Shown: positions 27,569-43,431 of the stretch, one piece after another
Position numbering within the stretch: position 1 is the stretch's first letter
Layout of the letters: each line of letters starts with the position of its first letter
NCBI GenBank assembly: GCA_017503375.1
Contig: JAFVTF010000001.1
Location: 13,322 to 77,321 of the forward strand
Length of the DNA stretch: 64,000 nt
Direction: 5' to 3'
DNA from: Lentisphaeria bacterium
GTDB lineage: Bacteria > Verrucomicrobiota > Lentisphaeria > Victivallales > UBA1829
The notes under the pieces: model-generated
Databases searched by the model: none
What the model was told of the DNA's origin: nothing
Seen by the model: the letters and a program-made list of their open reading frames with translations, nothing else
Program-made: the position numbers and the translations under genes

Positions 27569-30313
27569 ATGAAAGGTTTTTCTATGAGATATTGTATTTT
27601 GATATTGCTGAGCTGTTTCGCCGTAACGTTATCCGCATTGGATATTACGCCGGATTACACAATCGTTGCCGGGAAAAATTTATCGGTGACAGAGACAAAG
27701 GCAAATGCAATTCTTTCCCGTTATCTTGCTGAAATTTTCGGAAAGCAGATTCAACAGACAACGGAAAGCAAGTTCAGCGGAACTGGAAAAGCGATCTATC
27801 TTGGAGATTCCGCTTATGCCCGGAAAAACGGGATCCGGCAGGAAACTCTGAAAGATGAAGAATGGCTGATCAAAGCTATGCCGGACGGCAATCTGATCAT
27901 CACAGGCGGAAAACTCCGTGGAACTCTTTACGGCGTGTACGAATTCCTGGAACTTGCCGGATGCAGATATTTTTCCGTTGGTGAAAAGTATATCCCGAAA
28001 ATGAATGCGGTTAAAGTGGATGACAAACTGGAACGGAAAAGTGTTCCGTTTATGGAATCCCGTTATACATTCCTTGGATTCACAGGAATGGTCCCCCGGG
28101 AACTGTTCTCCTGGAACAAACAGAATCGTGATGCTGCTCCGGATAATGTAAACGGTGATTTCTTCAATGTCCGCCAGTGGGGACACTGTCATACATTTTA
28201 TATTCTCGGAAAGGGATTCCCGAAAGAGTGTTTTTCAATGGATCGTCATGGAAAACGGTCTGTTGCAAAGGATGGTACCGGTCCCGGACAGTTTTGTTTT
28301 ACAAGTCCCTTGACCCGGAAAATGATGAAAGAAAAACTGGGCAGGATGATTGCAGAAGATCAAGCCAAAGCAAAAGCCGGAGGATTCAGCCCGAAACGTC
28401 TCTATGTGATTTCTCAGAACGACACAACTGAACGGTGTGTTTGCAAAAATTGTCTTGCTCTGGAGAAAAAATACGGTGCTTACAGCGGAGTCCTGCTGGA
28501 TTTTATCAATGATATCGCTTCTGCTTTTCCCGATACCGCTTTTCAGACGGATGCTTATCAGTGGGGTGAAAAGGCTCCTGTAAAAGGAATCCGGGCAGCA
28601 AAAAATGTTTATGTCCAGCTGGCTTATCTGGGATATGAGTGGTCCGGAAATAATGACACCATGAAACCCCTGACGGATCCTGTCAACAAAGAAACCCTGC
28701 AGAAAATCAGAAAGTGGAACGGTTTTACAGATAATTATTCTGTTTGGGATTATCTGGTTGTCGGAAAGAACGGTCATCCGGCTCCTTATACTGTGATTCC
28801 TGCAATGATCGAAAACTTCAAGATTTACGGAAAAATGGGAGTGAAGCGGTATTTCAGTGAGCTTGAAGTCGCATCCGGAAAAAAAGCCGTTCATGCTATG
28901 AGTTTTCATGATCTGACTCTTTATCTGAACATGAAGCTGATGGAAAATCCGTTCTGCAATACAGATGCTTTGATCTTAGATTATTTCAAAAAATATTATG
29001 GTCCGGCAGAAAAACCGATGCGGGATTTGTTCGACTTGCTCGTGAAACGTCAGACTGCTGCCCGTCAGGCACTCGGCAAACAGCCGCCGCGCCAATGGAA
29101 ACATGCGGATCCCGATTTCCTGAAAACAGCAGATTCTCTTCTGAATCAGGCAGAAAAAGCTGCCGGAAATAATGAAACATTCCTGCGGAGAATCGGTTTT
29201 GAACGTCTGCCGATTGACACCATGCTCCTGCTGCACCGTCCGAAAGGAAATGATCCTGAAAATATGAGATTGGTGGAACGTCTGAAAAAGAATTACCGGA
29301 AAGCGGTGAAACGTTTGATCGAACCTTCATTGCAAAATGCAACGATTGCGGCGATTGACCGGAAACTGGATGTTATACTCAATCCTCTTCCGCTGCCGAA
29401 GCAGTTCCCCGCTGATAAAACGGAACAGAGAACGGTTGGGTTCGGTGGTTTCAGCGGAATGGTGATCAATGATCCGGATGCGTTTGAAGGGAAAGCAATT
29501 CATTCCACCAGAATAACAGAAGAAAGTCACCGGACCCGTCAGCCGCAGCTGGGAATCTTTGATCTTTCCATCCGTCGTGACGCTGTAAAACGTCTGATCA
29601 AACCTGAAGAAATTCCTGCAGACGGAAAATATCATATTTATTATCTGGGCAGACTCAAACCCGGAAATTATATGCAGCTTACCGGATGGGCTCATTATTC
29701 CTGGCACATGCGTTTCCCTCTGGAAATGCCGGAGGCGCAGAGCGAATATGATGTTTATGCTTCCTTGAAATTCATCGGACCGGCGTATGTGAAAGGTGCA
29801 AGCGGTCAGAGTGATTTCAGAATCGACAGAATCTTTTTTGTGAGAGCTGATTCTGTTCTTCCCAAAGGCGTTGATCCGGAAAAAAGTACAGTTTGTCAGG
29901 TGGTCAGCAACATCTGGTTCCGTGGAAAGCGGGTCAATGATCCTGAAGCAATCGGTTCCAAAGCAATCTGTCTTGAAGGAAAACCGGAACGCCATAAACA
30001 GAACATGTCTCTTGGTGTTTTTGACATGGCACGGAAACGGGATTTGATCAAATTCACGTTCAAACCCGGTTCGGTTCCACAGGATGAAAATTATCATCTG
30101 CATAAGATCGGAACCTTGAAAAAAGGTCACAGCGGGAAACTTGCCGGATGGATTCATCCATCCTGGGGGCTTCAGTTCCCCGCTCAGAAGTTGAATCCGG
30201 CAAAAGAGTATGATGTTTATGTCTCTCTGAAATTGACCGGTCCGGCTTATGTCAAAGGTTCAGCAAAGCCTTCAGCTGTATTCTGCGATATGGCTGTCTT
30301 TGTTGAAAAATAA
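27569..30313 (+). CDS. secreted DUF4838-like putative glycoside hydrolase with duplicated C-terminal domain
   Basis: 914 aa with signal peptide (MRYCILILLSCFAVTLSA; the start may be 27584). LRGTLYGVYEFLELAGCRYF is typical of DUF4838-type proteins. aa ~621-760 and ~773-914 are tandem copies of one domain. Confidence 0.75.
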   Translation: MKGFSMRYCILILLSCFAVTLSALDITPDYTIVAGKNLSVTETKANAILSRYLAEIFGKQIQQTTESKFSGTGKAIYLGDSAYARKNGIRQETLKDEEWLIKAMPDGNLIITGGKLRGTLYGVYEFLELAGCRYFSVGEKYIPKMNAVKVDDKLERKSVPFMESRYTFLGFTGMVPRELFSWNKQNRDAAPDNVNGDFFNVRQWGHCHTFYILGKGFPKECFSMDRHGKRSVAKDGTGPGQFCFTSPLTRKMMKEKLGRMIAEDQAKAKAGGFSPKRLYVISQNDTTERCVCKNCLALEKKYGAYSGVLLDFINDIASAFPDTAFQTDAYQWGEKAPVKGIRAAKNVYVQLAYLGYEWSGNNDTMKPLTDPVNKETLQKIRKWNGFTDNYSVWDYLVVGKNGHPAPYTVIPAMIENFKIYGKMGVKRYFSELEVASGKKAVHAMSFHDLTLYLNMKLMENPFCNTDALILDYFKKYYGPAEKPMRDLFDLLVKRQTAARQALGKQPPRQWKHADPDFLKTADSLLNQAEKAAGNNETFLRRIGFERLPIDTMLLLHRPKGNDPENMRLVERLKKNYRKAVKRLIEPSLQNATIAAIDRKLDVILNPLPLPKQFPADKTEQRTVGFGGFSGMVINDPDAFEGKAIHSTRITEESHRTRQPQLGIFDLSIRRDAVKRLIKPEEIPADGKYHIYYLGRLKPGNYMQLTGWAHYSWHMRFPLEMPEAQSEYDVYASLKFIGPAYVKGASGQSDFRIDRIFFVRADSVLPKGVDPEKSTVCQVVSNIWFRGKRVNDPEAIGSKAICLEGKPERHKQNMSLGVFDMARKRDLIKFTFKPGSVPQDENYHLHKIGTLKKGHSGKLAGWIHPSWGLQFPAQKLNPAKEYDVYVSLKLTGPAYVKGSAKPSAVFCDMAVFVEK

Positions 30314-30340
30314 AGCTCTGTTCCCAATAAAGGTTGTTAC

Positions 30341-31810
30341 TTGAGGAGGGGAAAAAGCCCTTTTGAGATGGTTTGCTTAAAGTCAAGCCGATTTTGAAAT
30401 ATTTTGATAATTTTTATCAAATTCTTTATCGGCTGTGACCATTCCCCGGAGAATCAATAACATCTTTCTCATCACAGCACAACGAGCCTGCATTCTGGTA
30501 TTACCTTTAGCAAGCACTCTATTATACAAATCCTGTAATACCGGAATGCGGGGCATTGCTGTTTTGGAACACATATAAAGAAATCTTCTGACAAGCGGAG
30601 ACCCTTTCTTACTTAATTTAGTTTGATTTACACTTGTTCCGGATAGCTTTCTTACAGGATTCAACCCACTCATAGCTGTTATCTTTTGGCGGGTGGGATA
30701 ATCTTTAAGTGATCCTAACTCCCCAAGTAACATTACTGCTGTTCCCTGACCTATCCCTGGCATAGATGTCATTATATCCACTTCATGCTTGATTTCCGGA
30801 ACGCTTAAAACAATCTTATCAATTTCCCGATCCAGTCCGGCAATTTCCTTGTCTATTGATTTAGCAACATTTGTGCACATTCTTTTTGCCAGAGAATCAA
30901 TGATATTGTCGTGATAATTCCCCAACGCTGTCCTCTGATCTTTCAAAAAAGATCTGGCTCGGGCATAAGAACGCAATTTTTCCATTTCTGCCGACAGTTT
31001 TCTTTTAGCAACAGGTGTGCGTTCGCGGCCGTATCTGGCAATGACCTGTGCATCTATTTTATCGGTTTTATTTTTGATATTCAAAGAGATAGAAAATGCC
31101 TTTATTGGTTCAGGATTAGCAATAACAACCTTGGCGTAGGGAAATAAGGCAAGAATCATTTTTTCCAACTGAATCGAATAAACCCCCGTGGATTCCATTA
31201 CGATATGCAATGGCAAATCATCAAAGGTATCTTCTGAATACAAGGCAAAAAAATCACTTTGCAGGGCTTGAACCCAACTTAAAAAACTTTTTGTACCGGC
31301 ATTAGTCAACTTAAATTCACGCTCCGGCAAGTCTGACACAGAGAGCATGGGTTGGTTTTCAAACAGCTGCGGAAAATCCAATGCTGCATGAAAAGACTTG
31401 GAGCCAACATCAATTCCGACCCATAATTTTTGATTTTGGATTTGCATTTTAATCCCTTCCATTGTATATTGTTGTTGTGCCTCACTGGTCATCCTTGTAA
31501 CTATACGAACTTTATGTTCAAGATGGTTTTTACGACCTTTTGTGAAGAGCACGGTAACGGAAGATACGCATAATCTAAAAAACGATCTTAAAGATCAGGA
31601 AAGGATCGGATGCTGTGTCTTCCGTGTGTTTTTTCGTGATCAACCGAAAAAACACTCCTGTTACCGTAGCATAACTTTTTCATTTGTCAAGCAGCTGCTC
31701 TTCACCTTTGGCTCCGACGAGTTGAAATACCCATTCTCGCCAAAGGGAGCTGCTGCTATCTGATAACTGGGGAGTAATATACAAGGAAAGGTCCTTTTTC
31801 CCCTCCTCAA
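30341..31810 (-). mobile_element. IS110-family insertion sequence (element 1)
   Basis: 17-bp perfect inverted repeat TTGAGGAGGGGAAAAAG (30341-30357) / CTTTTTCCCCTCCTCAA (31794-31810) brackets the transposase gene. About 1.47 kb. Confidence 0.6.
30383..31552 (-). CDS. IS110-family transposase (DEDD recombinase)
   Basis: LWVGIDVGSKSFHAAL (DEDD N-terminus) and C-terminal MTSMPGIGQGTAVMLLGELG...SGTSVNQTKLSKKGSPLVRRFLYM. Maximal ORF is shown. The likely start is Met31 or Met36 (31462 or 31447). Confidence 0.88.
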   Translation of the reverse strand: MLFTKGRKNHLEHKVRIVTRMTSEAQQQYTMEGIKMQIQNQKLWVGIDVGSKSFHAALDFPQLFENQPMLSVSDLPEREFKLTNAGTKSFLSWVQALQSDFFALYSEDTFDDLPLHIVMESTGVYSIQLEKMILALFPYAKVVIANPEPIKAFSISLNIKNKTDKIDAQVIARYGRERTPVAKRKLSAEMEKLRSYARARSFLKDQRTALGNYHDNIIDSLAKRMCTNVAKSIDKEIAGLDREIDKIVLSVPEIKHEVDIMTSMPGIGQGTAVMLLGELGSLKDYPTRQKITAMSGLNPVRKLSGTSVNQTKLSKKGSPLVRRFLYMCSKTAMPRIPVLQDLYNRVLAKGNTRMQARCAVMRKMLLILRGMVTADKEFDKNYQNISKSA

Positions 31811-31830
31811 CTTGTCACGGCGCAGATATT

Positions 31831-31860
31831 ATGAGAGACACAAGAGGTCTCTCATTTTTT
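31831..31860 (+). terminator. rho-independent terminator (probably the displaced terminator of the 914-aa gene)
   Basis: ATGAGAGAC - 7 nt - GTCTCTCAT followed by TTTTTT. Confidence 0.55.
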
Positions 31861-31861
31861 A

Positions 31862-33527
31862 TGTCTGAAAACAAAAAATGGTTTGCCTCTTGATAAAAAC
31901 GGATTTATGTTAATCCAAGAACACCGAAGTCGCATAGTGCGCTTCAAAAATCAGGAGGACAAACCATGAATAATGTATCACAGGAACAGGAAAAAATCTA
32001 CTTCGGATTGGACATTTCACAAAAAACTATTGAAATTTTTGTTTTGAAAGGCGAAAAAGGAGTGCCATTTGGTAAAATCCTAAATAATCAAAAAAGTTTG
32101 AATGACTTTTTCGATAAAGTACCTTTTCCTTCAAAAACAATAACTGTTGCACTTGAAACTGGCACACATTCTGCCTGGATAAGTCACTGCCTTGAACAGC
32201 GAGGATATGAAGTTATAGTTGCACATGCTCGTGATTTGGCATTTATTTATAAAGGTGATAAGAAAAGTGATCGTATTGATGCGGAAAAATTAGCCCGTGT
32301 TGCCAGAGCAGATAAAAAACTGCTGCACCCGGTCAGATTAATGAGCAAAACACGTCAGGAAGCATTACTTGCAATAAAAGCCCGTGATCTGCTTATGAAA
32401 GAAAGAACCTGCATCGTCAATGCTATCCGTGGATTTGTCCGTAGTCTCGGAATAGATGATGCAGAATATTCTATTGAAACAATAAGTAAAATGTATTCTG
32501 TACTGCCCAAAGAAATCCGTCAGAATTTACGAGGATTGTTTTCTGTTTTGACCGCAATCAACAACAATATAAGCAGCTACGATAAAAGACTAAAGAAAAT
32601 TGCTGAAGAGTATCCGGAAACAAAAATTCTTCAACAAGTAAAGGGCGTTGGTCCTATTATTGCGTTAAGTTTTGCCTTGATCATCAGTGATCCCAACCGA
32701 TTCAGTTCAAAAGAATGTGCTTCATATCTTGGATTAGTCCCCAAACGGGATCAATCTGGTGAAACAGACAAACAACTTGGAATCACAAAAAGCGGTAATA
32801 AACTTTTAAGAAGATTACTTGTGCAAGGGGCACAATACATTATGGGACCATTCGGTGAAGATTGTGATTTGCGTGACTTTGGCAATCGGATTGCACAAAG
32901 AGGAGGACGAATTGCCAAAAAGAAAGCGACTATTGCGGTTGCCCGCAAATTGGCAATTACAATGCTGGCATTGTGGAGAAATCCTGATGTGAAATATGAT
33001 CCACATTTCAAGGCTGCTAATAAACAGAACAGATGTGCTTGATTAAGTTTAATCAACGAAAAACAACCAAAAGAAAAAATAGTTAAAAGAAGATTTTTCA
33101 GGATTTGCTTTTTGTCCAGTCCGGATGATCTCGTGCTAAGGCTGAGTCTGATATTGCCAATATCACAAAGAAGATTGTGGCGCAGATTGAAGACATCGGG
33201 ACGGACATTTATCAGGCGTCGCTTTCGGCAGAAGCATTACAGAACGCGAATAGGAGCAAGACAAAAGCATACCTTTTAGGAATCATCTTTCGCTGATTAT
33301 CAACTTTTTTAACGTTTTTTTGCAAACACGACTTGACAAATAGTCTCTCATAGGAGCCTGAAAGGCGAAGACGGAACTCCACCCCTTTCTAGTCCTCCGC
33401 AGCCTTGTGCGGAGGAGGATTCCAAAACCTTTTTGCGGCATTCCGATTTTTACGATGTAAAAATCGAAATGCCATCTTAAAGTTGAAATAGCAGAAGGAT
33501 TTACCGACCTGTATGGGGAACAGCGCT
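31862..33527 (+). mobile_element. IS110-family insertion sequence (element 2), ends not defined
   Basis: Transposase gene plus 485 nt of structured non-coding DNA before the next gene. No terminal repeats were identified, so the coordinates are the maximal interval. Confidence 0.4.
31966..33042 (+). CDS. IS110-family transposase (DEDD recombinase)
   Basis: IYFGLDISQKTIEIFVL N-terminus. QVKGVGPIIALSFALIISDPNRFSSKECASYLGLVPKRDQSGETDKQLGITKSGNKLLRRLLVQGA is the IS116/IS110/IS902-type C-terminus. SD AGGAGG. Confidence 0.9.
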   Translation: MNNVSQEQEKIYFGLDISQKTIEIFVLKGEKGVPFGKILNNQKSLNDFFDKVPFPSKTITVALETGTHSAWISHCLEQRGYEVIVAHARDLAFIYKGDKKSDRIDAEKLARVARADKKLLHPVRLMSKTRQEALLAIKARDLLMKERTCIVNAIRGFVRSLGIDDAEYSIETISKMYSVLPKEIRQNLRGLFSVLTAINNNISSYDKRLKKIAEEYPETKILQQVKGVGPIIALSFALIISDPNRFSSKECASYLGLVPKRDQSGETDKQLGITKSGNKLLRRLLVQGAQYIMGPFGEDCDLRDFGNRIAQRGGRIAKKKATIAVARKLAITMLALWRNPDVKYDPHFKAANKQNRCA

Positions 33528-36527
33528 TTACTTTTTTATGCGGATCATGCGGAATTCCCGGGCAGGCAATGTAACAGAATCCGGATTGATTTGCTGTCCG
33601 TTTTCTGCATTGAAGCATTTGGGAGATTTTCCAAGCATTCCGGAGTCAAGATTCAGCTTAACTGACACAGCATCATCGGTATCGTTGAGCAATACCGCCA
33701 GAACACCGTCTTTCGCAGCGTAACTTGAAACCATAACTTTTTCGTTTGCGGGAGAAACTTTTCTGACAGGATTATCTTTCTGCCAATACCCCCAGAAGGC
33801 ACTGTTTTCTGTGATACCCGCCTGATCCATGATTTTCCAGAATGGCTGCGGGGTAACTCCATAAGAGAGCCACATATCGGAGTCATGAACAAAAACGTAG
33901 CCCATATAATGACGGATATGGAGATTCTGATTTTTGAGTTTTCCGGCGCGTGCTGCTTTATATTTTTCCGGATAATGCAAACCGTAAGCCCGTTGGAATT
34001 GCGGAATGAAAACATTTGGAACGCCAAACGGCCGTCCCATGAAACTGGCACGATAATAATCGGGAGTGAAGATATTGTAATAATTCTCATCTTTCCCCAC
34101 GTTCACAATGAAACTTTCACCGTCGATTGTGGCATTACAGAAAGATACCTGAGGCATTTCCGGTGTTTGTGTAAGATGCCGCACGATTTTTCCTTCGGGA
34201 TATAATTTTTTGTGAATACGATAAATCCCCTTTGCCAGCTCTCTTGCGCCCAGAACACTTGATGTCCGGTAGAGTTTGCCATGTTCATCCTTCCAGCCGC
34301 ATCCATGGGCAGGATTGGAACAGTAATAACTCAAATCATTATCGAAGTAGAGATGATCCATTTTCAGCTCCCGGATACATTTCTCGAAATTCCGGAGATA
34401 GTAACTGCGGTATGTCGGTGATTTTGTACAGATAAATACATATCTCCATTCCCGGTTGTTGACAGATGCTTCCGTTCCGACGACCGGCGGAGTGATACTC
34501 CATTCATGGGCATGCTGCGGATAAGCGGGATTTTCCGGCGATGCAGAGAATCCGGCGAAGTAGAAGAATACAGGAATGTTTCTTTTTCCGGCTCGTGCTT
34601 TTCTCATAGGTTCAAAATCATCTTTTTTGAACCTGGCTTCCGGAACATTGTGAATTTTTGCCCAGGGATACCAGAGAACGCTGTTGACTTCAGGACGGTA
34701 ATAGGAGCCACCGCGCCACAGACGCCGGTTCCGTTCAAACGGGCGGGATGGTGTCACATGAAGTCCGAAGCTCCAGGTAACAGGTTTGTCAAGGGTACAT
34801 TCATAGTCAATCAGATTGATTGTAAAGAGAGCACCATCTTTTCCGGGATCAAGGCGAACTGTTTCCTCCCGGTTTTTCAAACGGCGTCCGGCTTGATCTT
34901 CTGTAAAATAGTAAAGTCCTCTCTCTTCATTTCCCATCCAGAGAACCGGGAGTTTTCCATCGCTGCTTGTATCAAAATGATTGCGCTTGACTGTTTTCGT
35001 AAGTTTTCCGGCGAAATGTCCGCTCATTGAGAAGTAGTCTCTAACGAAGCAGTTGTAAAGAGTGGAAGTTTCCTTCCGGAAAGGGAGTTGGATTTTTGCG
35101 TTTCTGACCTGAACTTTTCCTTTAGGAATCAGGGTAACTTCAAACCACATCATGCCATCGAATTCAAACCGGCAGCGGGAAACAAGATCAAATCCGTTCC
35201 CGGCAACTTTCCGTTCAAGCACCTGATAATCTGGATGTTTTTCTGTAATTTCCGACACTGCTTTGCCGGATACAGCTTTTCCGTTCCAAATGAACTGCAT
35301 ATCTCCACGCAGGAGAGGTATTTTTTGAGAAAAAAGCTGTCCGGGGAACAGTCCGTTTCCAAAAACGGTTTTCTGCATGAGGGCTGAGAATTGATTGTTC
35401 TTGAATTCCACCGGTTTCCAGGGGGCTGGAACAGAGTGATCAACAACAGGTGCATAGTCACTGAGCGTCAGAAAAAGAGTTCTTCCTTCTACTATATCCT
35501 GAGGCTTTTCCCGGAGCGGTTTCAGGGTGATCCGGTAATCGCCCTTTTTCCATTTTGCCAGATCAAAAACATAACGGTATTCCAGAGACTTAGATCTCAA
35601 AACCGTTTTCAATACAGTTTTGCCATCATGAGAGACTTCCATCTCAACAGGGAACGAATGGCTTTTTGAGTCAGTTCTGGAGAGTGTAAAATCAAGATGG
35701 ATCTCCTTTTTATCCGGGGTGCTCAACATCTTTGAAGTTGTGATCGTTACAGGAATTTTGCTTTTGTCAATTTTTGCAACACCATAAGAAGTATAGAGTT
35801 GTTCAATTTCACTCCCGGACAGAGTCTTATCATAAACCCTGAAATCATCAATCAGAGAATTGCCGTCATGATCCCTCCATAAGTTCGGCCCGTAAGGACC
35901 GACAGAAAGGGTATGAAAGTTTGTCGGCATCAGCTCTTTTACATTTTTGATCATTCCTTTTTGAAGACCGTCAATATATATTCTGAGGCAATCCTGATCC
36001 CATGTAAACGCGAGATGGTGAAATTCTCCTGTTTCCCATTTCGGTTGGGGTGTCCGGGCAAGCATCCATCGCTGACTTTTTCCGGAGTTGAGTTTTCCGA
36101 AGATGAAAGCCGGAAAGCGTCCGATGTTGTATTTGTAGATGATCAGAACACTGTTATCGCCTTTTGCTTCACAAAAGACATGAAATTTCGGATCTTTGAA
36201 ACTCCAGTCCAAAGGCTTGAGCCAGAATGCGATTGTTCCCTTTTTCGGATCAAGTCCTTTTGCCGGATAATGGATGTAGTCAGCTTTTGTTTTTCCGTTG
36301 ACTGTTTCCGCTCCGATTCGCGCGGCTTTCCCTTTGACCCCGTCCTGAAGCAGAACGGAAAGGGTTTCCATATTGAGAGGAACGGAGTGTTTCCCCTGGA
36401 TGGTTCCTTTTGGTGTCTCCGCCCTGAAATCCCGGTCAAATGTCGCATGAATGACCGGTTTCGGAAGCTCTGCTGAAAGCGGAAATAACATTCCGGCAGC
36501 GAGAAGAGATAAAATTCTTTTTTTCAC
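33528..36527 (-). CDS. secreted LamG-domain putative glycoside hydrolase
   Basis: 999 aa with signal peptide MKKRILSLLAAGMLFPLSA. LamG/concanavalin-type N-terminus (GEFHHLAFTWDQDCLRIYIDG...IDDFRVYDKTLSGSEIEQLY) and a large uncharacterised C-terminal catalytic-like region. Confidence 0.75.
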   Translation of the reverse strand: MKKRILSLLAAGMLFPLSAELPKPVIHATFDRDFRAETPKGTIQGKHSVPLNMETLSVLLQDGVKGKAARIGAETVNGKTKADYIHYPAKGLDPKKGTIAFWLKPLDWSFKDPKFHVFCEAKGDNSVLIIYKYNIGRFPAFIFGKLNSGKSQRWMLARTPQPKWETGEFHHLAFTWDQDCLRIYIDGLQKGMIKNVKELMPTNFHTLSVGPYGPNLWRDHDGNSLIDDFRVYDKTLSGSEIEQLYTSYGVAKIDKSKIPVTITTSKMLSTPDKKEIHLDFTLSRTDSKSHSFPVEMEVSHDGKTVLKTVLRSKSLEYRYVFDLAKWKKGDYRITLKPLREKPQDIVEGRTLFLTLSDYAPVVDHSVPAPWKPVEFKNNQFSALMQKTVFGNGLFPGQLFSQKIPLLRGDMQFIWNGKAVSGKAVSEITEKHPDYQVLERKVAGNGFDLVSRCRFEFDGMMWFEVTLIPKGKVQVRNAKIQLPFRKETSTLYNCFVRDYFSMSGHFAGKLTKTVKRNHFDTSSDGKLPVLWMGNEERGLYYFTEDQAGRRLKNREETVRLDPGKDGALFTINLIDYECTLDKPVTWSFGLHVTPSRPFERNRRLWRGGSYYRPEVNSVLWYPWAKIHNVPEARFKKDDFEPMRKARAGKRNIPVFFYFAGFSASPENPAYPQHAHEWSITPPVVGTEASVNNREWRYVFICTKSPTYRSYYLRNFEKCIRELKMDHLYFDNDLSYYCSNPAHGCGWKDEHGKLYRTSSVLGARELAKGIYRIHKKLYPEGKIVRHLTQTPEMPQVSFCNATIDGESFIVNVGKDENYYNIFTPDYYRASFMGRPFGVPNVFIPQFQRAYGLHYPEKYKAARAGKLKNQNLHIRHYMGYVFVHDSDMWLSYGVTPQPFWKIMDQAGITENSAFWGYWQKDNPVRKVSPANEKVMVSSYAAKDGVLAVLLNDTDDAVSVKLNLDSGMLGKSPKCFNAENGQQINPDSVTLPAREFRMIRIKK

Positions 36528-43403: not shown

Positions 43404-43431
43404 TTGACTTTTAAAGATCAGGATGTATATT
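43404..43431 (+). promoter_or_regulatory. sigma70-type promoter of the lipoprotein esterase gene
   Basis: TTGACT - 16 nt - TATATT. The GGATGTATATTA block is shared with the promoter at 45443. Confidence 0.6.

Follow-up and report, generated by a model that had tools for sequence, protein, structure and literature searches.

Element 1, an IS110-group insertion sequence of a gut Lentisphaeria bacterium, very probably encodes a canonical bridge RNA in its left end

We have analysed an insertion sequence (IS), here called element 1, that lies in a 64,000-nt stretch of DNA (the window) from a Lentisphaeria bacterium (GenBank assembly GCA_017503375.1, contig JAFVTF010000001.1, positions 13,322 to 77,321 of the forward strand). 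Our results indicate that the left end of element 1 very probably encodes a genuine, canonical bridge RNA. The observations on which this reading is based are the boundaries of the element, its target, the guide matches, the fold, the covariation between guides and targets and the homology of the recombinase. At the level of sequence, element 1 has each of the features of an IS110-group element with a left-end bridge RNA, and it is an RNA-guided recombination system of the kind described in 2024; its mechanism is not new. A preliminary description of this DNA had suggested that such an RNA is encoded at the non-coding end, 5' of the IS110 recombinase, and this is borne out by two stem-loops with large internal loops, four guides, both handshakes and the covariation of guides with flanks.

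The boundaries of element 1 can be read from its empty sites. When the host genome (128 contigs, 3.6 Mb) was searched with window positions 30341-31810, nucleotides 1-27 and 1444-1470 of this query directly abutted, with a 2-nt overlap, at dozens of loci, and a pattern search found a 52-bp palindrome, TTGAGGAGGGGAAAAAGCCCTTTTG-AG-GAAAGGTCCTTTTTCCCCTCCTCAA on the plus strand, intact and without the IS at 47 loci. Since the flank matches adjoin at empty palindromes, the apparent inverted repeats are the two arms of the target. The IS itself occupies approximately 30368-31783 on the minus strand (about 1.42 kb), plus a CT core. This core (AG on the plus strand, CT in the orientation of the transposase) is shared by the IS and the target and occurs once only in the empty sites, which show no duplication beyond the 2-nt overlap; the dinucleotide alone is common to both junctions, and terminal inverted repeats are absent. 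The target is the centre of the palindrome, CCTTTC-CT-CAAAAGG on the minus strand, and all the junctions found in the host genome (9 right-end and 7 left-end, mostly at contig ends) lie at this centre in a single orientation. With at least nine junction copies of 96-100% identity, element 1 is, to all appearance, an intact, multi-copy insertion sequence of the IS110 group. Its junctions are composed as follows:

31786 to 31810, unstranded: left-target arm of the 52-bp host palindrome, on the minus strand ...GGGGAAAAAGGACCTTTC (47 intact loci; same flank at the 7 left-end junctions)
31784 to 31785, minus strand: core CT of the left junction (2-nt overlap in empty sites)
31776 to 31783, minus strand: left-end terminus TGTATATT, the right-donor (RD) sequence, holding a -10 box TATATT (31781-31776); invariant in orthologues
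30368 to 30386, minus strand: right end, finishing in AAACCAT, the left-donor (LD) sequence; GCTTGACTTTAAGCAAACCATCT is near-invariant in orthologues
30366 to 30367, minus strand: core CT of the right junction (empty sites and host-genome junctions)
30341 to 30365, unstranded: right-target arm of the host palindrome, on the minus strand CAAAAGGGCTTTTTCCCCTCCTCAA (9 right-end junctions at the same position)

A different anatomy had been proposed in the preliminary description, with inverted repeats of 17 bp (17-24 bp in all, at 30341 and 31810) as the ends of the IS, two hairpins as its guide loops and CCCAATAAAGGTTGTTAC and CTTGTCACGG as the target flanks. The sequences that it draws on do exist. 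The repeats (30341-30364 and 31787-31810) are real, an inverted-repeat search recovered the 11-bp perfect stem (31626-31636 with 31645-31655; here hairpin B), and the long composite stem at 31691-31756 (hairpin A) is kept in 15 orthologues, in which RNAalifold gives 24 pairs, 4 of them with compensatory changes. We nevertheless give this anatomy virtually no credence: the repeats are halves of a palindrome that stands intact 47 times without the IS, and as ends they are refuted by the empty sites, which place the target at the palindrome centre. Hairpins A and B, for their part, lack large internal loops and anchored complementarity to target or donor (guide-like complementarity to either was sought in both hairpins, and none above chance 7-mers was found), and both are constant across orthologues with different targets. 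The 11-bp hairpin is instead the bridge RNA's 5' stem-loop, and the long one lies upstream of it.

The gene inside these boundaries codes for a protein of the expected family:

30383 to 31447, minus strand: IS110-family DEDD recombinase, 354 aa (Pfam and structure-homologue matches)

Both Pfam domains score over their curated cut-offs (PF01548, E = 1.4e-15; PF02371, E = 3.7e-18), and the protein matches the IS621 transposase (8wt6, E = 2e-24) and ISCro4 (9t56, E = 2e-23). Aligned with IS621, the catalytic E lies in VMESTG (CIEATG in IS621), the catalytic DxxD in NKTDKIDA (NKTDTVDA) and the Ser motif (SGxS) of the Tnp domain in LSGTSV (ESGSSV), while an N-terminal GIDVGS, left unaligned by HMMER, was seen by inspection. 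The start codon had been placed at GTG 31552; it is ATG 31447 (MQIQNQKLWVGIDVGS...), and the GTG-extended open reading frame (ORF) upstream of it is broken by 1-nt indels in orthologue alignments. Indels of the same kind agree with the earlier view that a 73-aa plus-strand ORF in this region is non-coding. As translation starts at ATG 31447, the non-coding left end runs from 31785 to 31448 and measures 338 nt, not the roughly 260 nt previously estimated, whereas the right end extends just 15 nt beyond the stop codon.

The left end is strongly structured, as had been suggested. The minimum free energy (MFE) of the minus strand over 31450-31811 is -113.8 kcal/mol, compared with -84.1 +/- 5.6 for shuffled sequences (z = -5.3), and the MFE structure of 31462-31628, computed independently of the guide search, consists of exactly two stem-loops, both of which contain a large internal loop (z = -4.35). 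Together with the 11-bp hairpin directly 5' of them, they give the three modules of the predicted RNA, which measures 179 nt from the start of the 5' stem-loop to the end of the donor loop (31655-31477):

31626 to 31655, minus strand: 5' stem-loop, the 11-bp perfect stem 31626-31636 / 31645-31655, immediately 5' of the target loop's basal stem; 1 compensatory pair
31557 to 31625, minus strand: target-binding stem-loop (TBL), identified by MFE structure, guide matches and covariation with the flanks
31477 to 31552, minus strand: donor-binding stem-loop (DBL), identified by MFE structure and guide matches

In the TBL, the basal stem pairs ACGGAAGA..GCAU with AUGC..UCUUCCGU, including 2 compensatory pairs, and a distal stem-loop occupies 31596-31584. 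The DBL has an outer stem (GUGCU..UCAC / GUGA.GGCAC), a basal stem (GGUCGU / AUGACC) and a distal stem-loop at 31520-31506. Thus the range 31553-31810 that had been singled out for the bridge RNA does contain the target loop; the donor loop falls outside it, in sequence that had been taken as coding.

The internal loops of these two modules hold guides of the kind established for IS621. In that system (Durrant et al. 2024, PMC11208160), each internal loop repeats on its 5' side the top-strand sequence of the left half-site together with the core, and can pair through its 3' side with the core and the right half-site; the donor takes its left half from the terminus of the right end and its right half from the start of the left end. 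When the left end was searched for matches anchored at the core, the left and right target guides (LTG, RTG) and the left and right donor guides (LDG, RDG) were located:

31604 to 31597, minus strand: LTG, RNA CCUUUCCU (DNA CCTTTCCT), equal to the left target plus CT, 8/8
31582 to 31575, minus strand: RTG, RNA UUUUUUAG (DNA TTTTTTAG), pairing with CTCAAAAG, the core plus right target
31529 to 31521, minus strand: LDG, RNA AAACCAUCU (DNA AAACCATCT), equal to the right end plus CT, 9/9
31499 to 31494, minus strand: RDG, UACAAG (DNA TACAAG), the reverse complement of CTTGTA, 6/6

All four guides lie on the predicted sides of the predicted MFE loops, and the LDG match runs for 11 nt contiguously across the junction of the virtual circle. 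The loop complementarity proposed as a check in the preliminary description is therefore present on the minus strand, to the element ends and to the true target rather than to the flanks first suggested. The RTG pairs with CTCAAAAG at 7 of its 8 positions, through 6 Watson-Crick pairs and 1 wobble, with 1 U-C mismatch; with the variant CTAAAAAG, found at 2 of the 9 insertion sites, it has no mismatch (7 Watson-Crick pairs and one G-U wobble). The dinucleotides that follow obey the handshake rule of IS621, by which they pair with non-cognate and not with cognate DNA (Hiraizumi et al. 2024, PMC11208158): AU in the TBL (31574-31573) is complementary to the AT at positions 6-7 of the donor but not to the TC of the target, and GA in the DBL (31493-31492) is complementary to the TC at positions 6-7 of the target but not to the AT of the donor. 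The summed length of the core-anchored matches is 27, while 20,000 shuffles of the left end gave a mean of 16.3 and a maximum of 26.

The pairing of guides with flanks was further explored in orthologues of 72-99% protein identity, drawn from GTDB genomes, metagenome contigs and genomes of the same family. The set is small, with 18 distinct RNA sequences, all from related hosts. The GTDB orthologues come from metagenome-assembled genomes (MAGs) of Victivallaceae and Lentisphaeria from animal guts; a metagenome scan with an invariant 22-mer added merely 5 loci, and a family-wide DNA search found relatives in 4 other genomes out of 59. Across this set the left end is near-invariant, save for a variable stretch just inside the terminus and for both sides of the first internal loop. 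The target guides follow each element's own flanks in about seven target classes, and the donor loop is constant, as are the element termini. Guides of the RTG type match the right target (RT) exactly over 7-8 nt, as in the following orthologues (L numbers), some of which are given with their LTG:

L037: LTG TCTGTTCCCT, equal to its left flank
L030: RTG TTGTCAG, RT CTGACAA
L031: RTG TTATCAG, RT CTGATAA
L034: RTG CCTGTAG, RT CTACAGG
L056: LTG AACTTTCCT and RTG TTTTGAG, matching its own flanks
L057: LTG CCTGCTCCT and RTG TCCGGAG, matching its own flanks

When flanks were permuted among nine representative elements, 6 of 362,880 arrangements scored at least as high as the true pairing, and off-diagonal scores came near the own-flank values solely between elements with closely related targets. 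In the fold, cells assigned to stems are paired in 94% of cases across the 18 RNAs, compared with 29-49% when the partners are slid.

Could the structured left end serve only as a leader of the transposase, in transcriptional or translational control, with the guide matches being incidental? One further feature speaks for some role of this kind:

31455 to 31470, minus strand: AAUAUACAAUGGAAGG, containing the Shine-Dalgarno sequence GGAAGGG (31460-31454); a 16-nt inverted repeat with the left junction

This segment is complementary to the left junction CCUUUCCUUGUAUAUU (31791-31776) over 16 nt (88%), and the long-range helix between them is present in the MFE structure, so that a portion of the left end may have a role in the control of translation. 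A leader without guide function, on the other hand, does not predict four guides and two handshake dinucleotides at the positions and with the polarity expected from IS621, nor a match length reached by 0 of 20,000 shuffles, nor a pairing with flanks equalled in 6 of 362,880 permutations, and we judge it highly improbable. The 5' arm of the helix is made of the target CCUUUCCU plus UGUAUAUU. Because this arm occurs solely in transcripts that enter from outside the IS, the helix may block translation of read-through transcripts.

Several results weigh against the assignment of a bridge RNA to the left end or leave it less sharply defined. Covariation in the stems is thin, with compensatory changes in 4 of 51 stem pairs; it is modest because the scaffold is so conserved. 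In this copy, the RTG sets a U against the C that comes first after the core at 6 of the 9 insertion sites. The RNA could begin in either of two places, near 31765 if transcription starts from a promoter formed at the circle junction, hairpin A then being included, or near 31657 if it starts from an internal promoter-like motif. Contigs from RNA libraries (4 runs from 3 studies) cover this region, the whole element and the empty site, with DNA carry-over possible, and as they give no ends, strand or level, they neither support nor refute a discrete RNA of about 150-250 nt. Finally, a scan of 29500-34500 against Rfam 15 (E <= 10) returned chance matches (MIR5185, PVT1_3, Fungi_U3), none of them relevant, in a release that possibly holds no family of this type.

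The RTG mismatch to the commonest target variant, together with an A-A mismatch in hairpin A of this copy where its relatives pair, would also fit a bridge RNA that is real in origin and is carried by a decaying, immobile copy or lineage. We regard this as very unlikely: the ORF of 354 aa is unbroken, with catalytic motifs that align, at least nine junction copies at 96-100% identity are present in the genome, and two insertions lie in sites that the RTG pairs without mismatch. Moreover, the site is found both filled and empty within the same community samples, as seen from RNA-library contig joints that skip 1418-1419 nt.

We propose, by analogy with IS621, that the predicted bridge RNA works through its 5' stem-loop (31655-31626), TBL (31625-31557) and DBL (31552-31477). 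LTG CCUUUCCU and LDG AAACCAUCU, and then RTG UUUUUUAG and RDG UACAAG, would engage target and donor, and after exchange of the top strands the following dinucleotides AU and GA would pair with the non-cognate partner. The DEDD/Ser recombinase would in this way insert the circularised element at the CT in the centre of the 52-bp palindromic intergenic repeat. On circularisation, a -35 box in the right end and the -10 box in the left end would come together (TTGACT-17 nt-TATATT), and the transcript would start just upstream of hairpin A. Transcription of the RNA, the position of its ends, its binding by the recombinase and the role of hairpin A are what we infer from this analogy.

The region between the left terminus and the 5' stem-loop contains two more features:

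31691 to 31756, minus strand: hairpin A, the long composite stem, a conserved additional stem-loop between the junction promoter and the canonical bridge RNA (RNAalifold)
31663 to 31690, minus strand: internal sigma70-like motif TTGACA-16 nt-TACGGT, preceded by TG, between hairpin A and the 5' stem-loop (a pattern match)

In the virtual circle, in which the right end (RE), the CT core and the left end (LE) are joined in this order, the junction reads TTGACT-17 nt-TATATT, promoter-like as a sequence pattern, and its -35 box TTGACT overlaps the stop codon of the transposase in the right end. The -10 segment of the internal motif, ATGCTACGGTAA, is near-invariant (TATGGT in L031), and its -35 is absent in L056 and L057. 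A standard scan for promoters and terminators detected neither the split junction promoter nor the internal motif, and no terminator in the left end; the internal motif was missed because its -10 matches at 3 of 6 positions, and the junction promoter is missed by construction. The internal motif is a candidate promoter for an RNA of about 180 nt in the resident state, and hairpin A, which is constant across target classes, may be the 5' domain of the transcript driven by the junction. A speculative extension, which we consider rather unlikely, is that a selectively maintained hairpin A and a second, internal promoter yield two RNA forms with differing activities, one of about 290 nt from the circle junction and one of about 180 nt from the resident element, and that the near-invariant scaffold with its at least seven swapped target loops is a natural reprogramming series. 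If true, the two forms would be a state-sensing layer not described for IS621.

Two side observations concern these promoter-like sequences. The octamer ACGGUAAC (31660-31667, minus strand) shares nucleotides with the putative internal -10 box, and its exact reverse complement, GUUACCGU (31551-31558), lies in the linker that connects the target and donor loops. Pairing of the two segments would be in competition with the target loop's basal stem over 2 nt; covariation gives no verdict on it, as both segments are nearly invariant (one substitution, in L031). In the host DNA, two promoter-like sites on the plus strand of the window, at 43404 and 45443, read TTGAC[TA]-N14/15-GGATGTATATTA and share the format TTGACN ... 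TG-TATATT with the junction promoter of the IS, which suggests that this format is a functional promoter type in this organism.

The closest comparison is with IS621 of E. coli (PDB 8wt6). Its bridge RNA measures 177 nt (Durrant et al. 2024, PMC11208160) and is ordered 5' stem-loop, TBL, DBL (Hiraizumi et al. 2024, PMC11208158). Element 1 shows the same order in its 179 nt, belongs like IS621 to the IS110 group, in both cases with a left end that is long and a right end that is short, and codes for a homologous recombinase (E = 2e-24). The CT core and the start of the left end (CT/TGTAT) are the same in both, as are the non-cognate handshake rule, the promoter split across the RE-LE junction and the use of a palindromic intergenic repeat as target. 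In contrast, the left end measures 338 nt here and 191 nt in IS621, with about 125 additional nt between the terminus and the 5' stem-loop, which hold the 66-nt hairpin A and the internal promoter-like motif. The recombinase of element 1 also carries an N-terminal insertion, its alignments beginning at about residue 63 with Pfam (98 on the GTG-extended ORF) and at about residue 80 with IS621. Unlike IS621, element 1 comes from a Lentisphaeria gut bacterium and is known from sequence alone.

A second relative, the IS110-family element ISPpu10 of Pseudomonas putida, inserts almost only into a palindromic intergenic repeat (REP), and its target hairpin has been proposed to aid recognition and to insulate the resident copy; its bridge RNA is reported to have no 5' stem-loop (Na et al. 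2026 preprint, doi 10.64898/2026.03.19.712850). Every insertion of element 1 likewise lies in a hairpin-forming repeat. Unlike ISPpu10, element 1 has the canonical 5' stem-loop plus an additional one, and it inserts at the apex of the palindrome and not at the flank of the stem.

The elements of the IS1111 group (for example IS1111 and IS4321/IS5075) combine a short left end with a long right end, in which the RNA is encoded, and have subterminal inverted repeats of their own (7-17 bp). With this group, whose RNA is called seekRNA or RE-encoded bridge RNA, element 1 shares the DEDD recombinase family and the RNA-guided logic. Assignment of element 1 to the IS1111 group is ruled out by its reversed end lengths (338 and 15 nt) and by its inverted repeats, which belong to the target palindrome.

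An element with the look of the IS1111 type does occur next to it. This neighbour, element 2 (31826-33356, with a transposase at 31966-33042 on the plus strand), has ends ...GGCGCAG/ATATTATGAGAGAC and GTCTCTCATAGGAG/CCTGAAAGG (boundaries at the slashes), as placed by the solo copies of a 34-nt module that other parts of the genome contain. Its subterminal inverted repeats (TATGAGAGAC and GTCTCTCATA) measure 10 bp, its left end 140 nt and its right end 312 nt. In this right end, GGCGCAG (33179) equals its left target plus core, and TCAGGC is complementary to the GCCTGA of its right target; element 2 is therefore likely to carry an RE-encoded bridge or seek RNA. The 52-bp palindrome is itself one module of a mosaic intergenic repeat family, seen in the window at 30311-30365 and 31786-31850, in which AGCTCTGTTCCCAATAAAGGTTGTTAC and the palindrome are followed either by ACTCCACCCCTTTTTTCCAAACC... 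with a second long hairpin or by the 34-nt module CTTGTCACGGCGCAGCCTGAAAGGCGAAGACGGA. It is thus likely, as far as these target matches go, that adjacent modules of a single host repeat serve as targets for two different RNA-guided IS elements. Many copies of the mosaic repeat lie 20-110 nt from contig ends, and because IS and repeat copies sit at contig ends, they probably cause much of the fragmentation of the assembly.

Further observations touch on the diversity and distribution of the family. The RNA-library contigs break at the target loop (31573 and 31618), and their loose ends carry GTTCCCTGATCCAATAGATCCATTGTCAGG, of the L030 type, and loops of the L021 type; several target-loop variants therefore coexist in single gut samples. 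In the host genome, the left-end start of the family, TGTATATTA, diverging afterwards and with other flanks, is found on four contigs (C15:7851, C62, minus strand:73314, C64:46486 and C116:213), and the flank on C15, GCTCTGTTCTAT, is similar to the L030-L037 target class. The genome thus probably holds further members of the family with other target loops. Among the orthologues, L024 (JAZRSP010000461.1) has the usual right target (CTCAAAAGGTC...) and, on the left, an unrelated flank (GGCTCAGTTCTCT) without a match to its LTG, which may reflect an IS-mediated deletion or another rearrangement at one junction. Four orthologues on short contigs of 1.5-4.4 kb (L023, L030, L032 and L033) are binned in Acutalibacteraceae or Faecalimonas (Firmicutes) MAGs. 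Every copy on a long contig belongs to Lentisphaeria or Victivallaceae, and the short repeat contigs were therefore more likely mis-binned than spread across phyla.

What do these results mean for the IS110 family and its hosts? They correct the annotation of element 1 with respect to its boundaries, the start codon of its transposase and the nature of its "inverted repeats". They also present bridge-RNA-guided IS110 elements as active-looking residents of uncultured Lentisphaeria of animal guts. In these elements, one near-invariant scaffold is combined with about seven target loops, each matching its own insertion site, and this natural dataset could help to test the rules of guide reprogramming, the tolerance of mismatches beside the core and the handshake pairing.

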